DNA of 24,000 bases from an uncultured Alphaproteobacteria bacterium. Its GTDB lineage: Bacteria > Pseudomonadota > Alphaproteobacteria > ATCC43930 > CGMCC-115725. Location: the NCBI GenBank assembly GCA_963810055.1, contig CAWEME010000008.1, forward strand, positions 174,124 to 198,123, written 5' to 3'. The position numbers and the translations under genes were made by a program. The notes under the pieces were generated by a model. That model was not told the DNA's origin and made no database searches. It was given only the letters and a program-made list of their open reading frames with translations. Of the stretch, positions 447-21,462 are shown piece after piece (the stretch's first letter is position 1; each line of letters opens with the position of its first letter).

Positions 447-525
<79 letters not shown>

Positions 526-2077: not shown

Positions 2078-2394
2078 CGCCTTTGATCGACCAGGCCGTA
2101 TTATCATAAAGCTCATAAAGCAAGATCGGTAAGCAGCGGGTGGTTAAGTCTCTCCTTCCGTGACCACACGGTTGACCACATCGGGCTTGGTTTTCGACCA
2201 ATCCATGGAATAGTTCCTAGCGCGCCTTTTTTAGTTGCTGCGTCCGCTTCGGTTTCTCCGTCACGCGATGCTGCGGCCCCGCCTTCGCCACGTCCTTGAT
2301 GAATCGCTCGAAGCGCGGCCACGCATTGGGAAGAAGTTCAATTTCTTGTAGCTCGGCGCGTGTTTTTTTAACTTGCTCATGAAGGGACTATACC

Positions 2395-3057
2395 ATGTCG
2401 CCTGGTAAGAAGCCGAGGATCAAAAAGCCACCTCCACCGCCCACGCCAAAAACGCCAAAGCCTTGGGACGTGCCACCTCAACCAAAAATCGGGGATTCTG
2501 ATCGTGAGATTACATATGCCGCTGTAGGACGTGCGCTTTCTCAGTGGGAGTTGTTTGAATCAAACTTATTACAGTTGTTCGTGGTTTTTGTCGGCTCCGG
2601 TCCGACGGCACTTCTAACCGCAGCTCGGGCCTATGGAACAATCCAAACGTTCCGCGGTCGCGCCGATATGATTGAGGGCGCCGCTGAGGTGTTCTTCCTA
2701 ATTTACAAAAACAGTGATTTAGAGAAGCGCATAAGCGACTTCATGGACATTGCCCGCAATTATGCGGCACGGAGAAATGAGATCGCTCACGGAATTGTTT
2801 GGACAACTCATTGGGCCGGGACACAGAAACAAGGGAGCGCACTTTTCCCGGCGCGATACGCGAGCAATAAAAACAAAATCGGCAGCTTCCCGCTGGGTGA
2901 AACAGGCGCCCAAGTGCCGACCCATGTCTATTCGTCTGCCGAAATTGGGATGTTTACGAGCCGGTTTTTGGAATTAACAAGTCAGGCGCACAAGATTTAT
3001 ATCCAGACGGCCCGTTTTCATTATGCAAGTGCCAATAAGGAGAAGCTTCCAACATAG
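2395..3057 (+). CDS. HEPN-motif protein (putative RNase / abortive-infection-like), Pro/Lys-rich N-terminus
   Basis: ARNYAARRNEIAHG contains R-N-x-x-x-H, the Rx4-6H HEPN signature with a polar residue after the Arg. The region before it looks helical. The N-terminal 30 aa are KKPPPPPTPKTPKP low complexity. ATG is preceded by GAAGGGA. Confidence 0.65.
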   Translation: MSPGKKPRIKKPPPPPTPKTPKPWDVPPQPKIGDSDREITYAAVGRALSQWELFESNLLQLFVVFVGSGPTALLTAARAYGTIQTFRGRADMIEGAAEVFFLIYKNSDLEKRISDFMDIARNYAARRNEIAHGIVWTTHWAGTQKQGSALFPARYASNKNKIGSFPLGETGAQVPTHVYSSAEIGMFTSRFLELTSQAHKIYIQTARFHYASANKEKLPT

Positions 3058-3193
3058 TACCGCCTCAAGTGGTGACGTAATGCCGCCCCATATGCAGCAT
3101 AGCAAAAACCGGTGATTATCGCTTATCAGACGGATTGGGGCTAAATCGCTTTATCCTTCCGCGACTCGATAAGATGGGGGCAGAGTTTGGTCT

Positions 3194-3766
3194 ATGCGCG
3201 ATCTTTTCGGATTTGGCACGGCAGCGCTTATAGCCTTGGCTTCCCTCGCGCTCCAGCCTTGGTCATTAGCTTGGTGGATCGGCATGGCACTTGCCGCGGC
3301 CCTCGTCGTTCTATCGGGGGGCGATTTGTTATACAGGCGCTTCCTGTCGTGGCAAGTACGGCAGCATTTAAAACCCGTGCGCCAAACCCCTATATGGAAA
3401 GCGGTCGCACATATACGGGACGCTATTAACGACACGAGCCACGGCGAGTGTTACCCCGAAACTCTCAAAGCCATCCGGCAAGCGGCGCTCGATGGCAAAA
3501 TAAAATTGCGGGGACGCCCAGAGATTAATACCGACGGCCCTCAAAAATTCAGCGACGTTAGTTCCGACATCCCGCCGGAATATTGGAGGGTTTCATTGAT
3601 CGGCGCGATGGCGACTGATGAGCGATGCTACGGCGTCGGCTATCCCCATACAAATCCCGAAACGGTTTACGCATGGGGACAAAAGGGGGTTTACGAAAAG
3701 AAGCGTTACTCCGATCTGACTGTGAACATGCAAGAAATCAAACGTGAATGGCCGTCTGAAACATGA
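3194..3766 (+). CDS. membrane protein, two N-terminal TM helices, uncharacterised soluble C-terminal domain
   Basis: Hydrophobic stretches FGFGTAALIALASLAL and SLAWWIGMALAAALVVLSGG. It sits directly downstream of the HEPN gene on the same strand. Confidence 0.6.
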   Translation: MRDLFGFGTAALIALASLALQPWSLAWWIGMALAAALVVLSGGDLLYRRFLSWQVRQHLKPVRQTPIWKAVAHIRDAINDTSHGECYPETLKAIRQAALDGKIKLRGRPEINTDGPQKFSDVSSDIPPEYWRVSLIGAMATDERCYGVGYPHTNPETVYAWGQKGVYEKKRYSDLTVNMQEIKREWPSET

Positions 3767-3857: not shown

Positions 3858-3944
3858 GGCAGGGTTGCAGAGCGGTCGATTGCGCTTCCCTGAAAAGGAA
3901 GTGAACTCGAAAGAGTTCCGAGGGTTCGAATCCCTCCCCTATTC
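3858..3944 (+). tRNA. class II (Ser-like, long variable arm) tRNA-like gene with anticodon GAA (Phe); non-canonical acceptor stem, no encoded CCA
   Basis: Hand fold. D arm is GCA-GAGCGGTCGAT-TGC, which includes G18G19. Anticodon arm is CTTCC-CTGAAAA-GGAAG (U33, GAA, A37). The 18-nt variable arm has a perfect stem GAACTC-GAAA-GAGTTC. T arm is GAGGG-TTCGAAT-CCCTC. The acceptor is GGCAGGG/CCCTATT (two G:U pairs and one C.A mismatch); an alternative is an 8-bp GAAT[GGC]AGGG/CCCTATTC stem starting at 3854 with a 3-nt bulge. An 11-bp terminator hairpin follows immediately. Confidence 0.55.
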
Positions 3945-3945
3945 C

Positions 3946-3985
3946 GAGGCCCGCTCCAGTTCGCCGTAGAGCGGGCCTCGCTTTT
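3946..3985 (+). terminator. rho-independent terminator immediately after the tRNA-like gene
   Basis: Perfect 11-bp stem GAGGCCCGCTC (3946-3956) / GAGCGGGCCTC (3969-3979), a 12-nt loop, then GCTTTT. Confidence 0.7.
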
Positions 3986-4054: not shown

Positions 4055-4933
4055 GTGGATCAACGTGTGAAGGCCTTTCTTGCAAAGCGTCAGGCTTCCA
4101 ATCCCCGTGCCTTGGCCTATTACACCAGTCTTTGGGACGGGCATATGGCTGCCGGATTGGTGAACAATCATTTTGTGTCCGAGCTCACAAGCGGCTCTGA
4201 CCCCAAGTTTTTTCAACGAGTGTGGGAGATGCTCTTAGCCCGTCATTTGACCGCCTGCGGTCACGACATCACTTCCAGTCCAGAGGGCGAGCCTGACTTC
4301 TGCTTCGAACACGCGGGCGTCGTCGTATGGGTGGAAGCCGTTTCGCCCGAGCCTGGTCCCGATCTTTCTCGCAACCCTCCTACGACTGGAAGGAACGTTC
4401 CGCATAGAGAAACGCTTCTTCGTTGGACCACCGCTTTAGACGCAAAATGGAAGAAGGGTTCCGCTTATCGACGCGATGGTGTCGTCAAGCCGCAAGATGC
4501 ATATGTGATAGCAATTGATGGAAGCCAGCTAGGCTGGTTTCCCCTTGCGCACGGCCATTCTCGAATGCCATACCTCGTTGAGGCTACGTTTGCCATGGGA
4601 CCGCTGGCATTCGAGATTAACACAACGACTGGTGCATTTGTCGGGACTTCCCCCACGGTAAGTTTCTCCACTGCGAATAGAAATAATTCTCCAGTCCGAA
4701 CGGAACCCTTTTTCAATCGCAACTATTCCAACGTCAGTGCTGTTATTGGTTGTGTGCCGCCCATGTTTTGTGAGTCCATCCTGCCGATCCAAGTTGCTTA
4801 TAATCCGCTCGCAGATGTTTCCCTAAAGCCAGGCTGCTTTGGTCAGTCCGCCGAAGAATGGACAGCGGAATTGGTTGGTACTGATGCTGAGGGGCAAGAC
4901 TGGAAATTGAGGCGGCTCAATACTGTTGCATAA
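4055..4933 (+). CDS. hypothetical protein, weak PD-(D/E)xK nuclease-like pattern
   Basis: GTG start 8 nt after GAGGAGA. The segment GEPDFCFEHAGVVVWVEAVSP resembles the PD...E core of restriction-endonuclease-fold proteins, but no Lys follows. No other motif was recognised. Confidence 0.65.
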   Translation: MDQRVKAFLAKRQASNPRALAYYTSLWDGHMAAGLVNNHFVSELTSGSDPKFFQRVWEMLLARHLTACGHDITSSPEGEPDFCFEHAGVVVWVEAVSPEPGPDLSRNPPTTGRNVPHRETLLRWTTALDAKWKKGSAYRRDGVVKPQDAYVIAIDGSQLGWFPLAHGHSRMPYLVEATFAMGPLAFEINTTTGAFVGTSPTVSFSTANRNNSPVRTEPFFNRNYSNVSAVIGCVPPMFCESILPIQVAYNPLADVSLKPGCFGQSAEEWTAELVGTDAEGQDWKLRRLNTVA

Positions 4934-5071
4934 TTTAAGAATTTTGCACCAATTTTAGGCCGTTGAAAGAACGGGGCTTTTCTGGTGCAGAAATCCGGTG
5001 CAGAATCGCCGCATGATTTACGTCTATCCGCCGTCAGTTCGGGGGGCCTTGATCGCCAAGGGCAACGCCGC

Positions 5072-5863
5072 ATGAGCGGCCCCAATGCCAAAAAGCAGAG
5101 GGCCGGTTGGGAGACCCTCGACAGGCTGTTCGCCGAGGCTGCGAATGTCTGGGTCATCCACTACTCGTGCGAAAGTTTCTACGACCGGCCTAACGGCCGG
5201 TCGCCGAGAATTACGTCAATTGCAGTGCGCAAGCTCAACTCCGCGCAGACGCGCTCCTTCTCAATTCATCAGGTCGCTGAACGCCGTAATGTTCCATCCG
5301 ACGAGATCGAGGCGCACTACGACAGTCTTGAGCGAGAGATGCTGGACGCCTTCTACGATCATGTCCGCAGCTTCCAGGGAATGAAATATCTCCACTGGAA
5401 TATGCGAGACATCAATTTCGGATTCGCCGCCATCGAGCACCGCTACCGCGTGCTGGGCGGCGATCCGGCTGTCATCGAGGACGAAAGGAAGATCGACCTC
5501 TCCCGCTTGCTGATCGACATATTCGGGGTTGGCTATATCGGCCACCCTCGCCTTGAGAGCCTGTTGACTAAGAATTCTATCCGGCCTCTCGACTTCCTGA
5601 CTGGCGCTCAGGAGGCCGCAGCGTTCGACCAGAGGAATTTCGTCGGCTTGCATCAATCGACGCTGCGCAAGGTGGACGTGCTGGCGAATATCGCCGATCG
5701 TGCCCACAACCGACATCTCAAGACCAACACGACCTGGTGGGAAATGCACGGCGGCAGGGTTCGATCTGTATCCGTCTGGATTGCTGAAAACAGGTGGATT
5801 GCACTCGCGGCGAGCGTCGCCAGCATTATTGGTCTTTATTTTGTATTATGGCCAAGAAAGTAA
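5072..5863 (+). CDS. hypothetical protein with degenerate DEDD/RNase H-like exonuclease pattern and C-terminal TM anchor
   Basis: The ORF opens at GTG 4985, and ATG 5072 (MSGPNAKK...) is the more likely start. VIHYSCESF, YLHWNMRDINFGF and GLHQSTLRKVD are spaced like the ExoI/ExoII/ExoIII motifs of DnaQ-like exonucleases, but with non-canonical residues. The C-terminus WIALAASVASIIGLYFVLW is a TM helix. Confidence 0.65.
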   Translation: MSGPNAKKQRAGWETLDRLFAEAANVWVIHYSCESFYDRPNGRSPRITSIAVRKLNSAQTRSFSIHQVAERRNVPSDEIEAHYDSLEREMLDAFYDHVRSFQGMKYLHWNMRDINFGFAAIEHRYRVLGGDPAVIEDERKIDLSRLLIDIFGVGYIGHPRLESLLTKNSIRPLDFLTGAQEAAAFDQRNFVGLHQSTLRKVDVLANIADRAHNRHLKTNTTWWEMHGGRVRSVSVWIAENRWIALAASVASIIGLYFVLWPRK

Positions 5864-5875
5864 GCAGGCTACGGG

Positions 5876-7390
5876 GTGGAAATGGGCGGCACGGGCATCG
5901 AACAGAGAATGGCCATTCTCCGGAGCGCGGCCGATCAGCAGATCGTCAAGCCCTTTCGCACTCATGGGTGGGCGGCAGAGATTACTGAAGCTAAACAGGA
6001 CGGCGAATATCTCGTTATTAAGGCCGTAAAGGCCGACGTTACGCGATGTGTTGCGCTACTGTATTCCTCTGCCACCGATAACAAATATTACAAGAAACTT
6101 GATTCAGAAGTTGATCGTATATTCACTAACGGTGAATTGTATATGATTGAAAGCTTCGCTCACGGGTTGAAGAAGCCAGTTGTCCCTGTAGATCAATTTT
6201 TCCCCGTCCTCGTCGCATGGAATAAAGAATTACATCCTCAGACCAGGCGGCCTCCCGTGAAGCCGCGCCCATCAAGCATCCATTCAATCAAAGCCGAAAA
6301 TCCGCTTCTCAGCATTTGGAGTCGTCTCGACCAATTCGCAAGCACGCACTTAGCAGAGAAGCTCATTAGACGTCGCGCCAAAGAACAATCAATCGATATT
6401 TCTGACGAAAAAGTCACCAGTAAGGGGGCTGGCGTCGCGTTTGCACTTAGGAGTGCATCAGATTATTTCCGCTCAGTTCCGTTCGAGAGCCTGAATAAGA
6501 GAATTATTAGCATCTATTACGGCGGGCTTGTACTGTCCTTCGCAGAAATGCTTGCCTCTCCAACTGGTCCCGCCGATCTGGATGAGATTGAAGGGTACAC
6601 CAAGGTTGGGCATGGATTTTATACGTTCGGCACCGAGTCAAGAGGTTTCAGCGAACTCGTCGTGGGTGTCTTGGCAACGGGATTCCTACCGCGTTGGGCG
6701 GACTTTCTCGAACATGACGTACGTAGCTATCCAAAAGAGAAGGCAAAATCCGAAGAAGGGGTGTCAAAGCTTCCGCGCGATACATTCTGCACGCTCCGGA
6801 AGCTGCTATCCGCAGTTCCGGAGATTTCCGACCTATTCTCAGAAGCATTTGATAGTGAGCCATCTTGGATCATGCCGGTGCTGGACGTGGAAGCAAACAG
6901 TCCACGCTCGTTTATCCGCCAACCGGTGCTGAACAGTACTTACATCAAGCTCATAGATCGGTCGGGTCAGATCGCACAGACAAGACTTGAAAGCGCTGGA
7001 TGGCCCATTGCCGAGATTTCACAGGACAGTGATAGGCGAAATGGCCAAATATTCCGCGCACGTGTAGATCATCCGGAAAGCAATCACTGGTCTGAAGCTC
7101 TACCGATTCATCGTAGCCCATTTGAAAATAGCGGTGCATTGATATTGCCTCCCTTGAGTGATTTGTACGAATACCGTGTCGTCGCCATGGCCGTACTCTA
7201 TGCTTTGTCGATCTTGGTTCGTTATATGCCGCGCACATGGAGGCGTGTGGAGGGCGGAGACCTCGATCAACATCTTGCGCTTGTCAAAACGACGATCGGG
7301 GTGTTCGAGCGCATCCTTCCTCAGGAATTCCTAGAAGCGATCACCGGAGAGCGCGTTATCGCGACCCAACCCGGAGGGCTTTTCAACTGA
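5876..7390 (+). CDS. hypothetical 504-aa protein (possibly YaaC-like C-terminal region)
   Basis: Long ORF beginning 13 nt after the previous stop (GTG 5876 or ATG 5882). The C-terminal YRVVAMAVLYALSILVRYMPRTWRRVEGGD recalls the ...LS.L.RY.P..W... segment of YaaC-family proteins. This comes from memory only and was not verified. Confidence 0.7.
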   Translation: MEMGGTGIEQRMAILRSAADQQIVKPFRTHGWAAEITEAKQDGEYLVIKAVKADVTRCVALLYSSATDNKYYKKLDSEVDRIFTNGELYMIESFAHGLKKPVVPVDQFFPVLVAWNKELHPQTRRPPVKPRPSSIHSIKAENPLLSIWSRLDQFASTHLAEKLIRRRAKEQSIDISDEKVTSKGAGVAFALRSASDYFRSVPFESLNKRIISIYYGGLVLSFAEMLASPTGPADLDEIEGYTKVGHGFYTFGTESRGFSELVVGVLATGFLPRWADFLEHDVRSYPKEKAKSEEGVSKLPRDTFCTLRKLLSAVPEISDLFSEAFDSEPSWIMPVLDVEANSPRSFIRQPVLNSTYIKLIDRSGQIAQTRLESAGWPIAEISQDSDRRNGQIFRARVDHPESNHWSEALPIHRSPFENSGALILPPLSDLYEYRVVAMAVLYALSILVRYMPRTWRRVEGGDLDQHLALVKTTIGVFERILPQEFLEAITGERVIATQPGGLFN

Positions 7391-7454
7391 GGGGGGTCGC
7401 ATAGCCGGTGCGGGAGATCGCCGACTGCTACAACGTCGGCCCCAGGCTTGAGTC

Positions 7455-7898
7455 ATGACCGATACGCGCACCCCCGAGCAGCGCCGTGCCATCATGCAGG
7501 CAGTGCGAGGGAAAGACACCGGCCCCGAGATGATCGTGCGGCGACTCGTCCACGGTATGGGTTACCGCTATCGCCTTCACGTTGCTGGCTTGCCTGGCCG
7601 ACCCGACCTCGTGTTCCCGAGTCGCCGCAAAGTGGTATTCGTGCATGGGTGCTTTTGGCACGGCCACGGATGCCGCTATGGACAGCTCCCCAAGTCCAGG
7701 CTTAACTTCTGGACGGCCAAAATCGGGCGCAATCGGCGCCGCGACCGCACCCTTGTAACCGCCCTCAAAAAACAAGGCTGGGCCGTCCTCATCGTCTGGC
7801 AATGCAAGACGCGGCAACTCGATCAACTCGGACCTTTACGGCAACAACTCGCAAAATTCTTGTCCGTTTCCCCACAATCCCGATCTACATCCGCCTAG
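7455..7898 (+). CDS. vsr: very-short-patch repair endonuclease (Vsr)
   Basis: RRAIMQAVRGKDTGPEMIVRRLVHGMGYRYRLH...LPGRPDLVFPSRRKVVFVHGCFWHGH...NFWTAKIGRNRRRD matches the Vsr family signatures (PE..R, DhVF, FV.GCFWH.H, FW..K...N..RD). It lies immediately upstream of a C5-MTase. Confidence 0.9.
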   Translation: MTDTRTPEQRRAIMQAVRGKDTGPEMIVRRLVHGMGYRYRLHVAGLPGRPDLVFPSRRKVVFVHGCFWHGHGCRYGQLPKSRLNFWTAKIGRNRRRDRTLVTALKKQGWAVLIVWQCKTRQLDQLGPLRQQLAKFLSVSPQSRSTSA

Positions 7899-7937
7899 CT
7901 ATCCGTTAGGATTCCCGAATCAGTGAGGATGGGCTGG

Positions 7938-9275
7938 ATGACCAAGCGACCGATCGGGATCGATCTTTTTGCCGGAGCGGGAGGAATGAGCCTCGGCTTC
8001 GAGCAGGCGGGTTTCGACGTGGTTGCCGCCGTCGAGATCGATCCCGTGCATTGCGCTGTCCACAAATTCAATTTTCCCAAAACGGCCGTGCTGCCCCGAT
8101 CGGTAGTCGGCCTGAAAGCCGCCGACATCCGCATTGCGGCTGGCATCGGTCGAAGCCCGATCGATTGCGTATTCGGCGGGCCCCCCTGTCAAGGATTCTC
8201 GTTGATCGGCCATCGCGCGCTCGAAGACCCGCGCAACAGCCTTGTGCTCGAATTCGTGCGCCTGGTAGCTGAACTCGACGCCCGCACCTTCGTATTCGAG
8301 AATGTCAAAGGACTTACCTTAGGGAAACACAAACCGTTCTTAGACGAGCTGGTCGCCGCCTTCCATCGAGCCGGTTACACAGTGCGGTTGCCGTGGCACG
8401 TTTTGAATGCCGATCGCTACGCCGTTCCGCAGCACCGCGAGCGATTGATCCTGTTCGGCGCAAAAAAGGGCGAGAATATTCCGAACTACCCCGTTCCTCT
8501 CGTGAATCCGATTGACGATCGGAAATCTATCCCCGGCTTGCCGATCGGTCCGAGTTGCATTGCGGCGCTAGCCGATCTTCCCGACGCCGATCGCTTCGAC
8601 ACGCTTATCGAAACGGACGCCGTTCGCACGACTTCATTCCGCACGCCGTCACCCTACGCCGCCGAATTTAGGTGCCTTACGAACGATGCGTGGCACCGTG
8701 GTTACGTTAGAAATTGGAATCCAGCCGTTTTGACTTCCAGCGCCCGCACGAGCCACACCGCCATTTCGCGCCGTCGATTCGAAGAAACGACGCCCGGCAA
8801 GGTCGAGCCTATCAGCCGCTTTTTCAAACTTTCGCCCGGCGGCTTGTCGAACACTTTACGCGCTGGAACCGACGGAGCGCGCGGCGCGTTCACCAGCCCG
8901 CGCCCCATCCATTACAAATACCCCCGTTGCATCACCGTGCGCGAAATGGCCCGGCTCCATGGCTTTCCCGATTGGTTCAGATTCCACGCGACCAAATGGC
9001 ACGGCGCGCGACAGATCGGCAATGCCGTTCCGCCGCCACTCGCAAGAGCGATCGCCGGCGCCGTCGCAAAGGCGCTGCGAATCCGCCCGTCGCGTCCCTC
9101 TCGTGTCGTCGATCTTGGGGATGTGGCCTTGCTGTATATGGAAATGTCAGCGGCGGCAGAGCACTTCGGCGTCGAACCTCCGAACGGCCGCCGTGATCGC
9201 AAAAGCGGTGCGCGCAAGCGCAAACAGCACGAGATCGAGGAAACGCGCCGCCGCTTGAGGATCGTCTATGCCTAA
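7938..9275 (+). CDS. dcm: DNA (cytosine-5)-methyltransferase
   Basis: Motif I IDLFAGAGGMSLGF, motif IV GGPPCQGFS, motif VI FVFENVKGL, motif VIII QHRERLILFG, motif IX ITVREMARLHGFPDWFRF, motif X RQIGNAVPPPLA. The ORF opens at GTG 7923; ATG 7938, preceded by GAGGA, is the preferred start. Confidence 0.95.
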   Translation: MTKRPIGIDLFAGAGGMSLGFEQAGFDVVAAVEIDPVHCAVHKFNFPKTAVLPRSVVGLKAADIRIAAGIGRSPIDCVFGGPPCQGFSLIGHRALEDPRNSLVLEFVRLVAELDARTFVFENVKGLTLGKHKPFLDELVAAFHRAGYTVRLPWHVLNADRYAVPQHRERLILFGAKKGENIPNYPVPLVNPIDDRKSIPGLPIGPSCIAALADLPDADRFDTLIETDAVRTTSFRTPSPYAAEFRCLTNDAWHRGYVRNWNPAVLTSSARTSHTAISRRRFEETTPGKVEPISRFFKLSPGGLSNTLRAGTDGARGAFTSPRPIHYKYPRCITVREMARLHGFPDWFRFHATKWHGARQIGNAVPPPLARAIAGAVAKALRIRPSRPSRVVDLGDVALLYMEMSAAAEHFGVEPPNGRRDRKSGARKRKQHEIEETRRRLRIVYA

Positions 9276-10080
9276 GAAACCACACGCCCTCAATCGCTAC
9301 GAGTCTCTTATCGAGAAGATATTTTTCGACCATTACAAGAAAGGCGCCACCCAATTCGAATTCGATCGAGAGGAGCTGATCGCCGCCGCTGCTGCATTGG
9401 GCTTCGATACCGTCAAGAATGTCGGCGATGTGATCTACACCTTTCGTTATCGGAAAAGTCTTCCCGACAAGATTCTTGCCACTCAACCGGAAAACAAGCA
9501 CTGGCTCATTCTCGGCGCCGGCGATGCGCGCTACCGATTCCGTCTCAGCAACCTCGCCTATATTCACCCGACGCAAGGGCTGATCGTTCGCAAAATTCCG
9601 GACTCAACGCCGGAAATCATCGAGCGTTACGCCTTCACGGACGAACAGGCGTTGCTAGCAAAGATTCGTTACAATCGCCTGATCGACATTTTTCTTGGGA
9701 TCACGGCGTATTCTCTCCAAAACCATCTTCGCACCAACATCGCCAATTACGGACAAATCGAGATTGACGAACTTTATGTCGGGGTAGACGCACGCGCCGC
9801 TCAGTACGTTGTGCCGGTTCAGGCCAAGGGCGGTAAAGATGTGATCGGCGTTATCCAAACGATCCAAGATACCGTTTTTTGCGAGGCCGAAACCCGTTAC
9901 GCTAACTCTATCCCGCGTCCCGTGTCCGCTCAATTCATGGAGAACGATACTATTGCCCTGTTCGAATTGCATTTCGACGGCGACGACGTTTCGATCATTC
10001 AAGAGCGCCATTACAGGCTCACGGAATCCAAGGACATCACCGGCAAAGACCTAAAGGCGTATCGCAAGAATAAGGTCTAA
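9268..10080 (+). CDS. putative type II restriction endonuclease (cognate to the C5-MTase)
   Basis: The start overlaps the MTase stop by 8 nt (ATGCCTAA), implying translational coupling. EIDELYVGVD...YVVPVQAKGGKD fits a PD-(D/E)xK D...QxK core. Specificity is unknown. Confidence 0.6.
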   Translation: MPKKPHALNRYESLIEKIFFDHYKKGATQFEFDREELIAAAAALGFDTVKNVGDVIYTFRYRKSLPDKILATQPENKHWLILGAGDARYRFRLSNLAYIHPTQGLIVRKIPDSTPEIIERYAFTDEQALLAKIRYNRLIDIFLGITAYSLQNHLRTNIANYGQIEIDELYVGVDARAAQYVVPVQAKGGKDVIGVIQTIQDTVFCEAETRYANSIPRPVSAQFMENDTIALFELHFDGDDVSIIQERHYRLTESKDITGKDLKAYRKNKV

Positions 10081-15415: not shown

Positions 15416-16564
15416 CTAGGACCCGAGAGCTTTTCCCAGGCTTCCGGCCACTTGCGCAGCGGCGTCCCTAACAGGCTTATCCGCCAAATGCGCATAGCGC
15501 ATTGTCGTCTGTATCTGGGTATGGCCGAGAAGCCGGCCGACAACCACGATATTCACGCCCTGCATGACCGCATTCGAAGCGTAGGTATGGCGTAGATCAT
15601 GAATTCTAACGTGTTCGAGGCTGGCCTTCTTGCGGATGCGTTGCCAAGGCGGCTGAATATCGGTCGCATGCTGGCCAGGCACATGGCCCGCGATGACATA
15701 TTCATTGTCCGGCAGGCGGGGCAGGGCAGCGAGTACCTTGGCGGCCTCCTCGGGCAGGGGAATACGGCGCGGTCCGGTCTTCGAATCGGGCAGCTTTATG
15801 TAGCCGTCGCTGATATAGGACCATTTCAGGGTTTGGATTTCCCTCAGGCGGCAGCCGGTCAAAATGAGAAGTTGAATTGCCGCAATCGCATAAGGAGATT
15901 CGGAACCATCGGCGCCCGCTTCATTGAGTGCCTGCCCCAATCGTGTTAGCTCTTCCGTGCTTAGGAAGGTCTCGCGCTTGCGTTCGGGAAATTTTTTGAT
16001 GTGTCGGCAGGGATTGGAGCCGTCCGGCCGTAAGCCCCACACCTCGCACAGGTTGAACAGCTTGGAAAGCACACCCAAGGTCCGGTTGGCCTGATAAGGT
16101 TTTAGGCGCATTTGGTGATGGAGCTGCGCCATATCGGCGCGGGTCACGTCAACCACCTTAAATGGCCCAATCGCCGGATTGATGAACAGGTCGATAGACC
16201 GGCGATATTCGCGTTGCGTGTTCGGCTTGCAATGTTCGAGCACATGATCGCGGTAGAAGCGCTCGCACATCGTGGCGACAGTGACTGACCTACGGTGATC
16301 GTGAATCTCCTGGGCCGGATTTTGGCCGTGAGCAACAGCGCCGAGAAGTTCTTTAGCGCGCTTCCGCGCTTGCTCGGCGGTTAGAATGCCGTGCCGGCCG
16401 ATCTTGACCCGGCGCGTGCGTCCGCCGCTGCGATATTGGACGAGATAGGTCTTCTTGCCGCTCGGCCAGACACGCAAGCCGAAGCCCTTCACTTCATCAT
16501 CGAATATGATAAGCTCGCGTGTCTCTGGTGATATGGCTTCGACGCTACGCTTGGTAAGTTTCAT
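15416..16564 (-). CDS. int: tyrosine-type site-specific integrase (P4-like, DUF4102-type N-terminal arm-binding domain)
   Basis: The N-terminus FDDEVKGFGLRVWPSGKKTYLVQYRSGGRTRRVKIG is the DUF4102 pattern. Catalytic residues are in TGCRLREI, HDLRHTYAS and LLGHTQIQTTMRYAHL (R...HxxR...Y). Confidence 0.95.
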   Translation of the reverse strand: MKLTKRSVEAISPETRELIIFDDEVKGFGLRVWPSGKKTYLVQYRSGGRTRRVKIGRHGILTAEQARKRAKELLGAVAHGQNPAQEIHDHRRSVTVATMCERFYRDHVLEHCKPNTQREYRRSIDLFINPAIGPFKVVDVTRADMAQLHHQMRLKPYQANRTLGVLSKLFNLCEVWGLRPDGSNPCRHIKKFPERKRETFLSTEELTRLGQALNEAGADGSESPYAIAAIQLLILTGCRLREIQTLKWSYISDGYIKLPDSKTGPRRIPLPEEAAKVLAALPRLPDNEYVIAGHVPGQHATDIQPPWQRIRKKASLEHVRIHDLRHTYASNAVMQGVNIVVVGRLLGHTQIQTTMRYAHLADKPVRDAAAQVAGSLGKALGS

Positions 16565-16732: not shown

Positions 16733-16779
16733 CTCATAACCTGAAGGTCGGAGGTTCAAATCCTCCCCCCGCAACCACC
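16733..16779 (+). repeat. attR of GI-1: displaced 3' part of tRNA-fMet (47-bp perfect direct repeat of 479-525)
   Basis: Character-by-character identity with 479-525. It lacks the 5' half of the tRNA, so it is not a gene. Confidence 0.9.
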
Positions 16780-18392
16780 GAGAGTCTAACTCCGGTTAGG
16801 TCTTTGTTCTTCTTCCCTACCAGCATCAGGATACCTGCCAGGTCACCGTGCAGCGTGGCCGGGATCTCGCCGCGTTTGGGGCCTGGCAGGAGGCTCACTT
16901 TGCTCACCAGTGAGCGTATGAGCTCAGCCGCCTCGCGGGCCGCCTCCGGGTCTTCCAGTGCCGCCGAGAGGTGCTCGATCTTGGCACGGTAGACCTCGGC
17001 CATGTTCGGGTGAACATCCGGGAAGTCCTGTGGGGCATTGGCCAGCCTGAAACTGGCTTCGGCCTTTTCCCGTTCCAATTTGCCGAGGCGATCGAGCAGG
17101 GCAGGGGATTTACCCCCGTCTACGATGATATCAACGGCCTTCTCGATTTGCCTTTCTACCCGCTCCAATGTTCGTTTATCGGCTTCGGCGGCTGCCCGCC
17201 GCTCGTGATTGAGCCGATTGGTTTCCTCTTGGAAGTCGCGGACTGCTTTCTCGGCGGCTTGCGGCGTGACAAGAATAGCCTTCAAGCCGTCGAATATGCG
17301 TTTTTCGATTACGTCACGTTTGACCGTGTGCCCGTTCTTGCAGGCCCCACGCCGGAAATGATTGGCGCAGCCATAGCGGTCGTTTTGAATGACCACGTAA
17401 TTGCCGCCGCACATGCCGCAACTGAGCAGCCCAGAGAACAGGAAGCGCTTGCGATGTTGCCCATTGAGGCGGTTCGCGAAGCTCTCCCGCACTGCCTGGA
17501 TGCTCTCTTGGAACTCTATGGCAAGCGCGGCCTGGCGGCTCTTTGCGGCTTCCCAAGCCGAATCCTGGACAATCCGCAACTCCGACACGTCCTGAATGAT
17601 CCACTCAGATTTCGCGTTGATTCGGGAGATTCGCTTGCCGGTATCCGGATTCTTGACGTAGCGCAGCCGGTTCCAGACCAGCTTGCCGATATAGAGCTCG
17701 TTATTGAGGATGCCCGTGCCGCGCGAGGCGTGGCCGCGAATGGTGGTATCCATCCAGGCTCCGCCATGCGGGCCGGGAACATGTTGGGTGTTTAAGTCGC
17801 GGGCAATGGCGCGCGGCGATTTGCCAACGGCGAATTCGCGGAAAATGCGGCGGACGATTTTGGCTTCGTCTTCGTTGATGGTGCGGTCACCCCGGATCGG
17901 CTCGCCCTTGGCGTCCAGTTTCGTGACGGGGCGATAGCCGTAGCAAAGCCCGCCGCCGGATTTTCCTTGTTCGACCCGCCCTCGAATCCCGCGCCGCGTC
18001 TTGTCGGCCAAATCCTTGAGGAAAAGGGCGTTCATGGTGCCCTTCAATCCAACATGAAGGTGGGTAATTTCGCCTTCGGACAGGGTGACAATCTTGATGC
18101 CGGCGAAGCTCAGCCGCTTGAAAACCCCGGCCACGTCCTCCTGGTCGCGGCTGATGCGGTCCAGGGCCTCGGCAAGCACCATGTCAAACAGGCCCCGCGA
18201 GGCGTCCGTAAGGAGCGCCTGGATTCCTGGCCGGATAAGGCTAGCTCCGGATTTGGCGCGGTCATTGTAGCCTTCAACCACGTGCCATCCCTGCTTTTTG
18301 GCGTATTCGCGGCAAAGCCGAAGCTGGTCCTCGATTGAGGCGTCCCGCTGATTGTCCGAGGAATAACGGGCATAGAGCGCAACACGGATCAT
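16734..18392 (-). CDS. large serine recombinase (resolvase/invertase N-domain, recombinase domain, zinc ribbon, coiled coil)
   Basis: MIRVALYARYSSDNQ carries the catalytic Ser motif. Also present are LAEALDRISRD, the zinc ribbon CGMCGGNY...YGCANHFRRGACKN and a long helical C-terminus. Preferred start is ATG 18392, 8 nt after GGAGG (the ORF opens at 18410). The last 16-18 codons (..VVAGGGFEPPTFRL) are read from the antisense of the tRNA-derived repeat. Confidence 0.9.
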   Translation of the reverse strand: MIRVALYARYSSDNQRDASIEDQLRLCREYAKKQGWHVVEGYNDRAKSGASLIRPGIQALLTDASRGLFDMVLAEALDRISRDQEDVAGVFKRLSFAGIKIVTLSEGEITHLHVGLKGTMNALFLKDLADKTRRGIRGRVEQGKSGGGLCYGYRPVTKLDAKGEPIRGDRTINEDEAKIVRRIFREFAVGKSPRAIARDLNTQHVPGPHGGAWMDTTIRGHASRGTGILNNELYIGKLVWNRLRYVKNPDTGKRISRINAKSEWIIQDVSELRIVQDSAWEAAKSRQAALAIEFQESIQAVRESFANRLNGQHRKRFLFSGLLSCGMCGGNYVVIQNDRYGCANHFRRGACKNGHTVKRDVIEKRIFDGLKAILVTPQAAEKAVRDFQEETNRLNHERRAAAEADKRTLERVERQIEKAVDIIVDGGKSPALLDRLGKLEREKAEASFRLANAPQDFPDVHPNMAEVYRAKIEHLSAALEDPEAAREAAELIRSLVSKVSLLPGPKRGEIPATLHGDLAGILMLVGKKNKDLTGVRLSVVAGGGFEPPTFRL

Positions 18393-18416
18393 GGATTTAG
18401 CCTCCAACAAACCAGC

Positions 18417-18842
18417 TTACTCTTTTGTCCAGGGGTCCAGAATGGATTTCAGCGAGGTCTTGAAATCCGAGACGTTATGGGTCACGAGCGTCAGATCATG
18501 GACTTCGGCAGTCGCGGCAATGAAGGCGTCCATCGCTTCAATAGGCCTGCCGGCGGCCTCACACCGTGCGAAAATCTTCCCACAAGCATCCGCAACTGTG
18601 CCGTCAACCGGTAAGATTCGATCTTCGAAACGCAACGGTAGCTCCTCCCGCAACCATTCATCGAGTTGTTTCCGCTTTACGCCAGCGGGCAGCCGCTCGA
18701 TCCCGTAGCGAAGCTCCGCCAATGTCACGGCGCTAATGAACACGCGGTCTTCATCTACCCCCTCCGTCCAGGTGATTAGGCCTGGATTGGGTTGCGGCTT
18801 GACCCACTCTGAAACCGCGTTGGTATCGAGCAGGAAGGTCAC
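18417..18842 (-). CDS. vapC: PIN-domain toxin VapC (type II TA)
   Basis: The N-terminus LLDTNAVSE carries the first acidic residue. The conserved ISAVTLAELRYG and DAFIAATAEVHDLTLVTHNVSDF segments are present. There is a 4-nt overlap with the upstream antitoxin gene. Confidence 0.9.
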   Translation of the reverse strand: MTFLLDTNAVSEWVKPQPNPGLITWTEGVDEDRVFISAVTLAELRYGIERLPAGVKRKQLDEWLREELPLRFEDRILPVDGTVADACGKIFARCEAAGRPIEAMDAFIAATAEVHDLTLVTHNVSDFKTSLKSILDPWTKE

Positions 18843-19820: not shown

Positions 19821-20885
19821 TTATCCAGTAGCGACTGGAGTCTGGCGGTTTTCAACCTGCATATTCGGAGCGACGGGCCAAGGCGCGGAGCCCTCGATCA
19901 GCGCAGCGCCTTGACCTTGTTGCGGTGAGAATTTGGCGGCATAAGCGGCTGGCGTCAGCCAGCCGATGCGAGAATGAGGCCGAACGGTGTTATAGTCGCG
20001 CCGCCATTCTTCGAGGGCGGCACGCGCCTGGGCGAGCGAGGTGAACAGGGTCTCGTTCAAGAACTCGTCGCGCAGCCGGCCATTGAAGCTCTCGATGAAG
20101 GCGTTCTGGATCGGCTTGCCCGGATCGATGTAGTGCCAATCGACGCCCGTTTGCGCCGTCCAGGTCAGAATGGCATTGCTGGTCAGTTCCGTGCCGTTGT
20201 CGCTGCCGACCGTCTTGGGTTTGCCGTGGGCCGCGATGAGAAGATCGAGTTCGCGGGCCACCCGCTTGCCCGAGAGCGAGAAGTCTGCGATCGCGACCAG
20301 GCATTGCCGGGTGCAAACGTCATAGATCGCCAGAATGCGGAAGCGGCGACCGGAGTCAAGTTGATCGGACACGAAGTCGAGCACCCACAAGTCGTGCGGC
20401 AGCGCCGGGACCGGCATGGGCGTTCTTGTTCCCAAAGCCCTTTTGCGACCGCCCCGTTTGCGCACCATGAGCCGTTCCTCGCGATAGATGCGGAATAGCC
20501 GTTTGTGGTTCACGACAAAGCCCTCCCGGCGAAGGAAGATGAGCAAGCGGCGGTAGCCGAAGCGGCGGCGTTCCCGGGCCAAGGTCACAAGCCGCTCGCG
20601 CAGCCTGGGATCGTCGGGCCGCCGGGAGTGGTAGCGGATCGTCATCCGCACGCAGCCGATCACTTGGCACGCCCGCCGCTCGCTCATCTCATGGGCCGCC
20701 TTGAGATGGGCGACAGCTTCTCGCTTCACGGCGGGCGTTACCATTTTTTTGACAGTAAATCCTTCAAGCCCGCGTTGTCGAGCATGGCGTCGGCCAACAG
20801 CCGCTTCAGCTTCGAGTTCTCCGTCTCCAGCGCCTTCAGCCGCTTGGCTTCGGACACGTCCATGCCGCCGAACTTGCTCTTCCAA
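19821..20885 (-). CDS. IS3-family transposase OrfB (DDE), expressed as OrfAB by -1 frameshift at A7 (20744-20750)
   Basis: The DDE integrase core is present: WVLDFV..., [32 protein letters not shown]. OrfA ends TCA AAA AAA TGG TAA, and a -1 slip gives [11 protein letters not shown]..., the OrfB frame. Confidence 0.9.
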
Positions 20886-21210: not shown

Positions 21211-21250
21211 GTTTGACTCTCGGTGGTTGCGAGCCCCCGCAACCACTTTT
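21211..21250 (+). repeat. attR of Element 2: inverted-repeat arm, 13-bp tRNA-end core and T-tract (also folds as a 9-bp hairpin)
   Basis: In gtttgactctcGGTGGTTGCGagccccCGCAACCACtttt, the arm 21211-21231 is 20/21 the reverse complement of 16770-16790, and the core 21234-21246 equals 512-524 of the tRNA. Confidence 0.6.
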
Positions 21251-21462
21251 GTTATAACTCCCTCGAAATCTCGATTTGATGGCCGCGCGCGCCTACAACC
21301 ACCGACGGCATCCGAACTGCGTGCCCGTCTGGGTTTAATCCGGGTCACACATTGGTCGAGACCGCTATCTGGGCTGCTCACATATTCCACTGCGATCGGC
21401 CGCCCGCTAGGGTCGGTAGCAGCGTCATCCGGCGCTGGCTGTCGCCGCGCGCCGGCTACGGT

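Follow-up and report, generated by a model that had tools for sequence, protein, structure and literature searches.

The window analysed here is a 24,000-nt stretch of DNA from an uncultured alphaproteobacterium (contig CAWEME010000008.1, positions 174,124 to 198,123, forward strand). The subject is a gene within it for a 220-aa protein, probably a ribonuclease (RNase) of the HEPN superfamily. A reading made from the letters alone (the sequence-only reading) had singled out three features: an open reading frame (ORF) with the motif ARRNEIAHG, an ORF for a protein with two N-terminal transmembrane (TM) helices, and a tRNA-like gene. A functional link between nuclease and RNA was raised as a possibility. 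All three features were found at the positions given, the tRNA-like gene beginning 91 nt beyond the second ORF. Together with a small ORF upstream, they are as follows.

2395..3057, plus strand: gene for the HEPN-like protein, 220 aa, intact
2767..2793, plus strand: ARRNEIAHG, residues 125-133 of this protein, the R-N-x3-H form of Rx4-6H (R127, N128, H132)
3194..3766, plus strand: gene for a 190-aa protein, hydrophobic at the N-terminus and conserved in its C-terminal domain
3858..3985, plus strand: tRNA-Ser-like RNA with a GAA anticodon and a terminator-like hairpin
2220..2380, minus strand: small basic ORF with the motif L-x-P-N/D-A-W-x-R/K-F-E, upstream of the HEPN-like gene and divergent from it

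Searches with the 220-aa window protein against Pfam, NCBIfam, PADLOC and PDB sequences returned nothing useful, and tblastn against plasmids gave no match. A word-indexed search identified 145 related clusters, all of them lacking both a functional name and a Pfam domain. Exhaustive profile searching of 1.84 billion representatives raised this to 3,392 clusters at E ≤ 1e-3, of which 777 were at E ≤ 1e-30. The protein is a member of a large family that has no Pfam model and that was mostly alphaproteobacterial among the loci sampled.

An alignment of 56 diverse relatives (mean column identity 22%) contained seven invariant columns, G45, W51, E55, R127, N128, H132 and F191, all of which are present in the window protein. 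The RRNEIAHG block was at least 90% conserved throughout. By estimate, about 0.5 lone matches to Rx4-6H would be expected by chance in 220 residues, so the motif is meaningful because it is conserved, not because of the match alone. The family carries the conserved Rx4-6H, commonly R-N/H/D-x3-H, that is looked for in HEPN proteins. The N-terminus of the window protein (MSPGKKPRIKKPPPPPTPKTPKPWD) is rich in Lys and Pro, and this unusual composition, already remarked upon in the sequence-only reading, was kept across the family as PPPTPK.PKPWD.P, with W24, G33 and D34 nearly invariant. Conservation of this segment indicates that the annotated start codon of the ORF is right.

The AlphaFold2 (AF2) model, built from the family alignment, had a predicted local distance difference test (pLDDT) score of 93.4 and a predicted template modelling (pTM) score of 0.86. 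Helices were modelled at residues 37-66, 70-82, 86-103, 107-132 and 181-217, with a beta-rich insert at 134-175. ARRNEIAHG formed the C-terminal end of the long helix 107-132, and was followed by a loop and the final long helix 181-217. In HEPN domains Rx4-6H lies where helix 3 ends (PMC3710099), and the modelled secondary structure fits that description of the motif position. The suggestion that the R-N-x-x-x-H motif was embedded in a helical region agrees with the model, in which its three defining residues are placed at a helix end.

When family members were scanned singly against Pfam, sub-threshold matches were obtained to HEPN_MAE_28990 (PF18737) in 13 of the 56 and to HEPN_RiboL-PSP (PF18735) in 7, and, in one member each, to HEPN_Cthe2314 and to the Csm6 HEPN domain. 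Matches to PADLOC models were also weak (E > 0.003), and fell in the HEPN parts of Csx1, Csm6 and CARF_HEPN. Those for which coordinates were shown covered some 30 residues, were centred on the motif, and lay in the C-terminal third of the HEPN profiles; the ARRNEIAHG region was the part matched by PF18737, PF18735 and PF09659 in relatives. Matches to PF18735, PF18730 and PF09659 were weaker than those to PF18737. No bridge to bona fide HEPN families was reached, the best 150 of the 3,392 profile matches all being close family members. The HEPN identity that had been read from the motif is plausible in view of the invariant residues, the helix position and weak profile matches confined to HEPN families, but the Pfam check remained below its thresholds. 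Because the database support is sub-threshold and motif-centred, we regard membership of the HEPN superfamily as probable.

The family was compared with the HEPN RNases described by Anantharaman et al. (2013, PMC3710099), including the MAE_28990/MAE_18760-like (PF18737), RiboL-PSP (PF18735) and stand-alone abortive-infection (Abi)-type proteins. An invariant R-N-x3-H motif, ending a long helix of an all-alpha core in the model, was common to both; weak, motif-centred profile similarity linked the family to PF18737 and PF18735, and the form of a small single protein on mobile DNA was shared with the stand-alone Abi-type proteins. The family differs from known HEPN families in falling below their thresholds, in the beta-rich insert of about 40 residues (134-175) between the motif helix and the last helix, and in the conserved Pro/Lys-rich N-terminal extension. 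Against the PADLOC defence models the window protein had no match, whether to Abi proteins or to others. The partners listed for known HEPN families (ParB with a methylase, ParA, MNT) are not beside the 220-aa gene; in particular, no nucleotidyltransferase domain that would mark an MNT antitoxin, and hence a HEPN-MNT pair, was detected in the flanking window genes.

Neighbourhoods were sampled at 32 genome loci encoding relatives of the 220-aa protein, mostly from Alphaproteobacteria. The recurrent neighbour was a protein of about 315 aa, encoded upstream on the same strand, which was identified as an IS1595-family transposase by Zn_ribbon_IS1595 paired with DDE_Tnp_IS1595 (PF12760/PF12762; E down to 1e-40). 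A transposase hidden Markov model (HMM) located it at 13 of the 32 loci, and it was also found beside the closest relatives with readable context, P0003 (72% identity), P0002 (56%) and P0021. Apart from the transposase, no conserved protein neighbour was detected over the 32 loci.

At 10-11 loci, terminal inverted repeats with the shared core ..ATTATATACTTGACA.. enclosed the transposase and HEPN genes together, and the HEPN gene was always the final gene ahead of the right repeat. The left repeat was followed by the transposase, in some cases by an extra gene and in some by a small divergent ORF, and then by the HEPN gene and right repeat. Perfect 8-bp target duplications were present at the exact repeat ends in 3 of 10 elements (L005, AAGCGGAA; L018, AAAACATT; L019, CGATCGGG), 8 bp being the length of target duplication of the IS1595 family (PMC8101967). 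These elements measured 1.9-3.6 kb, the longer ones holding the extra gene. The extra gene of the 2.9-kb element with a perfect 8-bp duplication at L005 was the following.

L005:4884-5747, minus strand: gene for a DUF7946/DUF7947 protein, between the transposase and HEPN genes

Its presence indicates that IS1595 elements can carry more than one passenger. Enclosure of the HEPN gene by inverted repeats and an 8-bp duplication, together with a transposase, marks it as the passenger of an insertion sequence (IS), and this was found in these relatives. The characteristic home of the 220-aa family is the passenger slot of IS1595-family ISs, and the whole unit moves together. Within the IS-borne set, transposases were 38-61% identical and HEPN proteins 21-41% identical. 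For the pair L019 and L025, the HEPN genes were 72% identical, the transposases only 46%. The association is old or recurrent, with exchange between elements.

In PMC3129680, which cites Siguier, Gagnevin and Chandler (2009), passenger-carrying ISs of the IS1595 family are given as the basis of the transporter-IS concept. The relatives resemble transporter ISs in their Zn-ribbon and DDE_Tnp_IS1595 transposase, and in having inverted repeats and 8-bp duplications around one or two extra genes. They differ in the nature of the passenger, a predicted HEPN RNase, for which no precedent in simple ISs came up in the literature searched. Their repeat ends (GGnnATTAT-like) presumably resemble those of the ISNwi1 subgroup. 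The window copy differs further, its transposase and repeats having been lost or never having been present. Likeness was also seen to the toxin-antitoxin passenger modules of Tn3-family transposons, among them the HEPN-MNT pair in TnSod9 (Lima-Mendez et al. 2020, PMC7157771), where a predicted RNase toxin likewise occupies a fixed site in a transposable element and a benefit to the element has been proposed. The 220-aa case differs from these in transposon family, in having no MNT or other conserved antitoxin, and in being a single gene as opposed to a pair.

Within the window, no transposase was found by HMM, and nine transposases used as tblastn queries yielded no more than a weak, recurrent match at 1942-2055 (best E = 0.046). 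A profile of 20 inverted-repeat arms found no repeats. With neither transposase nor repeats detected, the presence of a complete or clearly truncated IS in the window was rejected. One short match, missed by the profile, lies 52 nt past the HEPN stop codon and is suggestive only.

3109..3123, minus strand: possible relic of an IS right end, with 14/15 positions matching the L005 inverted repeat in its outer part

The window HEPN gene is a solo copy that lacks a transposase and repeats, and is cargo of an integrative island. The boundaries of this island were defined by the following features.

230-345: 5S rRNA, near the window start
447-523: tRNA-Met gene, found by ARAGORN and Rfam
479..525, plus strand: attL, left copy of a perfect 47-nt direct repeat that corresponds to the 3' half of tRNA-Met
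16733..16779, plus strand: attR, right copy of the perfect 47-nt repeat
15416..16564, minus strand: tyrosine integrase of the island, with Arm-DNA-bind_3, Phage_int_SAM_3 and Phage_integrase matches

The 5S rRNA and tRNA-Met genes at the opening of the window are the tail of a ribosomal RNA operon. From the 47-nt attachment (att) repeats and the tyrosine integrase, it follows that a 16.25-kb integrative island is seated in tRNA-Met and encloses all three features, which agrees with the mobile-island context that had been suspected. Repeats of the tRNA 3' end at both ends, together with an integrase, are what characterizes a tRNA-integrated genomic island. Further genes in the island are listed below.

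779-1705: 308-aa protein with a weak N-terminal ribbon-helix-helix (YlcI/YnfO, Arc or CopG-like; E = 1e-5 to 0.1)
4055-4933: 292-aa protein with weak PD-T7-5 and PD-T7-1 similarity (E about 1e-5)
4985-5863: second 292-aa protein, function not assigned
5876-7390: 504-aa YaaC-like protein (PF14175, E = 1.4e-17)
7455-7898: Vsr
7923-9275: C5 cytosine methylase
9268-10080: 270-aa protein with no Pfam match

The C-terminal region of the 308-aa protein, about 260 aa, had no match, and the protein had no relatives in any fetched locus. The genes at 4055-10080, 3' of the tRNA-like gene, are likely a series of defence cargo, in which the 270-aa protein, beside Vsr and the C5 methylase, could be a restriction enzyme. 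Past attR lie four more features.

16734-18410: serine recombinase
18417-18842: PIN protein
19821-20885: IS3-type transposase
21234-21261: third, partial att copy, 75% identical

The partial att copy suggests tandem islands, the second of which would carry the serine recombinase, the PIN protein and the IS3-type transposase. The first island is like P4-type tyrosine-integrase islands in tRNA genes, with the 47-nt tRNA-Met 3'-half repeat at both ends and the integrase at one, and its cargo, which includes a C5 methylase, Vsr and a protein with weak PD-T7-5 similarity, is like that of defence islands in tRNA genes. No unusual difference from such islands was seen. It is an ordinary setting, and one that accounts for unrelated cargo lying side by side.

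Taken together, these data are best accounted for, with a probability of roughly 0.6, by a solo gene for a HEPN-type RNase whose family is often an IS1595 passenger, and which is here island cargo among unrelated neighbours. By analogy with characterised HEPN enzymes, the 220-aa protein would be a dimeric, metal-independent RNase whose active site contains R127, N128 and H132. The copy in the window is carried as cargo of the 16.25-kb tRNA-Met island among restriction-modification and other defence-like genes, and the 190-aa protein and the tRNA-like gene would be separate cargo that lie downstream by happenstance. The role of the protein would most likely be that of a selfish-element toxin or an Abi-type effector favouring retention of the carrier element. 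Stand-alone Abi-type HEPN proteins and the toxin modules of Tn3-family transposons (PMC7157771) offer the analogies on which this suggested role is based. The family, the invariance of its motif, the passenger layout with target duplications, the ends of the island and the absence of co-occurrence were observed; the HEPN fold, the activity as an RNase and the biological role are inferred.

Several results weigh against this account. No HEPN profile was matched at its curated threshold, the best being PF18737 at E = 0.0079 and 16.8 bits against a cut-off of 26.8 bits, and the window protein itself matched no HEPN profile. Foldseek against the PDB returned only generic four-helix bundles (E ≥ 0.46), with no solved HEPN domain among the top matches, and a search of PDB sequences with the family profile returned nothing. 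The sole good structural match was an unnamed viral protein (Foldseek against BFVD, E = 0.013, target-normalised TM-score 0.74). No partner that would restrain a toxin is conserved across the family. As to the passenger habit, 19 of the 32 genome loci were solo, with no transposase or repeats, and further solo copies lay among housekeeping genes. Divergences of transposase and HEPN protein were uncorrelated (Mantel p about 0.74), so the association may be one of recurrent capture and not of one stable lineage. Finally, with no transposase remnant or recognisable repeat in the window, the case for an IS origin of this copy is one of homology.

Alternatively, the 220-aa protein might be neither a toxin nor a defence RNase but an accessory factor of an IS1595 subgroup, for example a regulator of transposase expression or transposition, in which case the window copy would be a stranded relic lacking any role. 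The gene holds a fixed place, last, on the same strand and by the right repeat, in elements with transposases of only 38-61% identity, a sign of an old association. Target duplications around whole units, the lack of a conserved antitoxin, and the conserved basic Pro/Lys-rich N-terminus are also in keeping with this idea. However, about 60% of sampled copies were solo and intact, several of them among housekeeping genes, which argues for a function that does not need the transposase in cis. The L019/L025 pair indicates swapping, since 72% identity between the HEPN genes was accompanied by only 46% between the transposases, and the invariant catalytic-type motif suits an enzyme. On balance, a role as an IS accessory factor seems unlikely.

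Another possibility concerns the small ORF that lies upstream of, and divergent from, the HEPN gene. Six-frame HMM searches found this ORF in the same place in L001, L006, L034-36, L055 (intact, 56 aa) and L056 (a fragment), and a similar-sized gene occupies the matching position on the P0002 contig. The intact copy is given below.

L055:6816-6986, minus strand: intact small PDAWxRFE ORF, called as a gene

At an A7 run (2363-2369) in the window, the frame of the ATG at 2380-2378 departs from that of the conserved part of the ORF, and one added A in this run would restore an ORF of 58 aa. The window PDAWxRFE ORF is either a pseudogene or the product of a homopolymer sequencing error. The HEPN gene and this ORF might form a two-gene toxin-antitoxin or regulator-effector module. 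The shared position and orientation at the window and the loci just named, which include closer relatives of the window protein and both IS-borne and solo copies, would be expected of such a pair, as would the called gene in L055 and its counterpart on the P0002 contig. Yet the ORF was absent from most loci, and in compact elements such as L010, L019 and L025 only 90-220 nt separate the transposase and HEPN genes. In the window it has no in-frame start while the HEPN gene is intact, its divergent orientation would be unusual for a type II toxin-antitoxin pair, and a homologue search with it returned the query alone. We consider such a module decidedly doubtful.

Among 5.8 billion clusters, the 190-aa protein had five homologues at 45-63% identity, which indicates that the ORF is a real gene. 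Two hydrophobic segments (about residues 5-20 and 24-41) lie where two N-terminal TM helices had been predicted, but they were kept in only about half of the five homologues. The conserved part is the C-terminal soluble domain, about residues 63-189. An AF2 model of the protein was poor (pLDDT 53) and unfit for structure search. Convergent IS1595-family transposase fragments lie just downstream of homologues at two loci.

L033:626-1334, minus strand: IS1595-family transposase fragment
L042:929-1006, minus strand: IS1595-family transposase fragment

The 190-aa family, too, may be linked to IS1595 elements.

For the tRNA-like gene, ARAGORN called an 88-nt tRNA-Phe(GAA) with a long variable arm at 3858..3945 (plus strand), counted 91 nt past the 190-aa stop codon, and the Rfam tRNA model gave the same interval 43 bits, above its gathering score of 29 bits. 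Further members were sought by pattern scans, BLAST and a covariance model, and three were found.

L044:6534-6620, with hairpin to 6662: tRNA-like member on a soil metagenome contig
L053:5992-6081, with hairpin to 6127: tRNA-like member on Methylobacterium nodulans plasmid pMNOD01 (NC_011892.1, near 158.6 kb)
L061:11813-11947: tRNA-like member on an IMG/VR contig

Members scored 106-144 bits with the covariance model, as against 73 bits for S. meliloti tRNA-Ser(GCU). All four have a tRNA-Ser-like body, a long variable arm and an invariant CUGAAAA anticodon loop. One to three of acceptor pairs 1-3 are non-Watson-Crick, with the window and L061 sharing an identical pattern (G1·U72, G2·U71, C3×A70); the discriminator is C or U, and there is no CCA. 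The downstream terminator-like hairpin is conserved in sequence (GCCCGCTCC...GAGCGGGC). In an RNAalifold analysis of the first three members, 15 of 39 predicted pairs were changed on both sides, and compensatory changes occurred in every stem, which indicates that the RNA is under selection. It is a conserved family in its own right and, as judged from these features, would be either a Ser-type tRNA reading Phe codons or an uncharged tRNA. Restriction-modification genes lie within a few kb of three of the four members: L044 has a DUF4238 protein and an MmeI-like enzyme nearby, L061 a C5 methylase together with a Vsr that has 51% identity to that of the window, and the window its Vsr and C5 methylase. 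Annotated near the pMNOD01 copy are a resolvase and a protein with an NYN domain, a predicted RNase domain.

Other tRNAs with a GAA anticodon and a long variable arm were noted on viral contigs (the IMG/VR contigs L062/L063, L083, L086/L087/L120 and L110, and also L050:104-193); their anticodon-stem registers were read by eye. In at least one of them, L110, the acceptor stem is apparently well paired and is accompanied by G73 (a Ser-like identity), and the top two acceptor pairs are mismatched in L086, L087 and L120. Two candidates were set aside. An inverted match of 19 nt that 3576-3594 shares with the tRNA-like 3' end was at chance level (about 0.6 expected, by estimate), and an ARAGORN call of tRNA-Ser(GGA) in L025 looks like a false positive.

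The three features did not travel together. Neither the 190-aa protein nor any other flanking protein of the window had a relative at the 32 HEPN loci, and the covariance model detected the tRNA-like RNA in no HEPN locus searched; a tRNA of any type lay within 6 kb at only 5 of the 32, and these differed in kind and position. Conversely, the five contigs with a 190-aa homologue had no HEPN homologue and no tRNA in their available flanks, and L044, L053 and L061 encoded neither the HEPN nor the 190-aa protein. The sequence-only reading had paired the HEPN gene with the two-TM gene, raised a possible link of the nuclease to the tRNA-like gene, and proposed a survey of neighbourhoods; the survey of these loci found the three nowhere else together, and supports neither the pairing nor the link. 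The 190-aa protein is a neighbour of the HEPN gene, not a conserved partner, and the proposed system of nuclease, membrane protein and tRNA is not supported. Since the features share one integrative island, adjacency is weak evidence of a functional link, and is most simply explained as that of unrelated cargo. It is very improbable that a tRNA-targeting nuclease works as one system here with a membrane partner and with an RNA that is a mimic, an antidote or a replacement tRNA: the genes are adjacent on one strand with gaps of 136 and 91 nt, and the RNA is real, selected, invariant in its CUGAAAA loop and recurrent in defence-type neighbourhoods (near the annotated NYN-domain protein in M. nodulans), but co-occurrence was 0/32 at HEPN genome loci, nil in 7 further contigs, 0/5 at 190-aa homologues and 0/3 at the other tRNA-like loci, the 190-aa family numbers only 6 clusters against thousands for the HEPN family, and IS-borne HEPN copies have the repeat directly after the gene, with no space for partners.

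To return to the preferred account, a solo RNase gene from an IS1595-borne family, the family itself, several thousand clusters strong and with an invariant HEPN-type motif, lacks a Pfam model and ought to be given one, along with a name. The unusual tRNA-like family beside the window copy merits its own study. The conserved anticodon loop and weak acceptor end of this RNA would suit a decoy or sensor for anticodon nucleases, and, more remotely, the HEPN RNase might in this island meet the neighbouring tRNA-Ser-like GAA RNA. A tentative further idea, to which we give a rather low probability, is that the HEPN-like protein, instead of being random cargo, is a long-standing, functionally integrated second gene of an IS1595 subgroup, an RNase that would enforce retention of the element or gate its transposition. 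If so, the 220-aa family would be a transposon-addiction or transposon-control module of a kind undescribed for simple ISs. Through its IS1595 passenger habit, the family offers a concrete and testable example in which a minimal transposon carries a predicted RNase, with relevance to the spread of toxins and defence genes and to why some ISs are retained.

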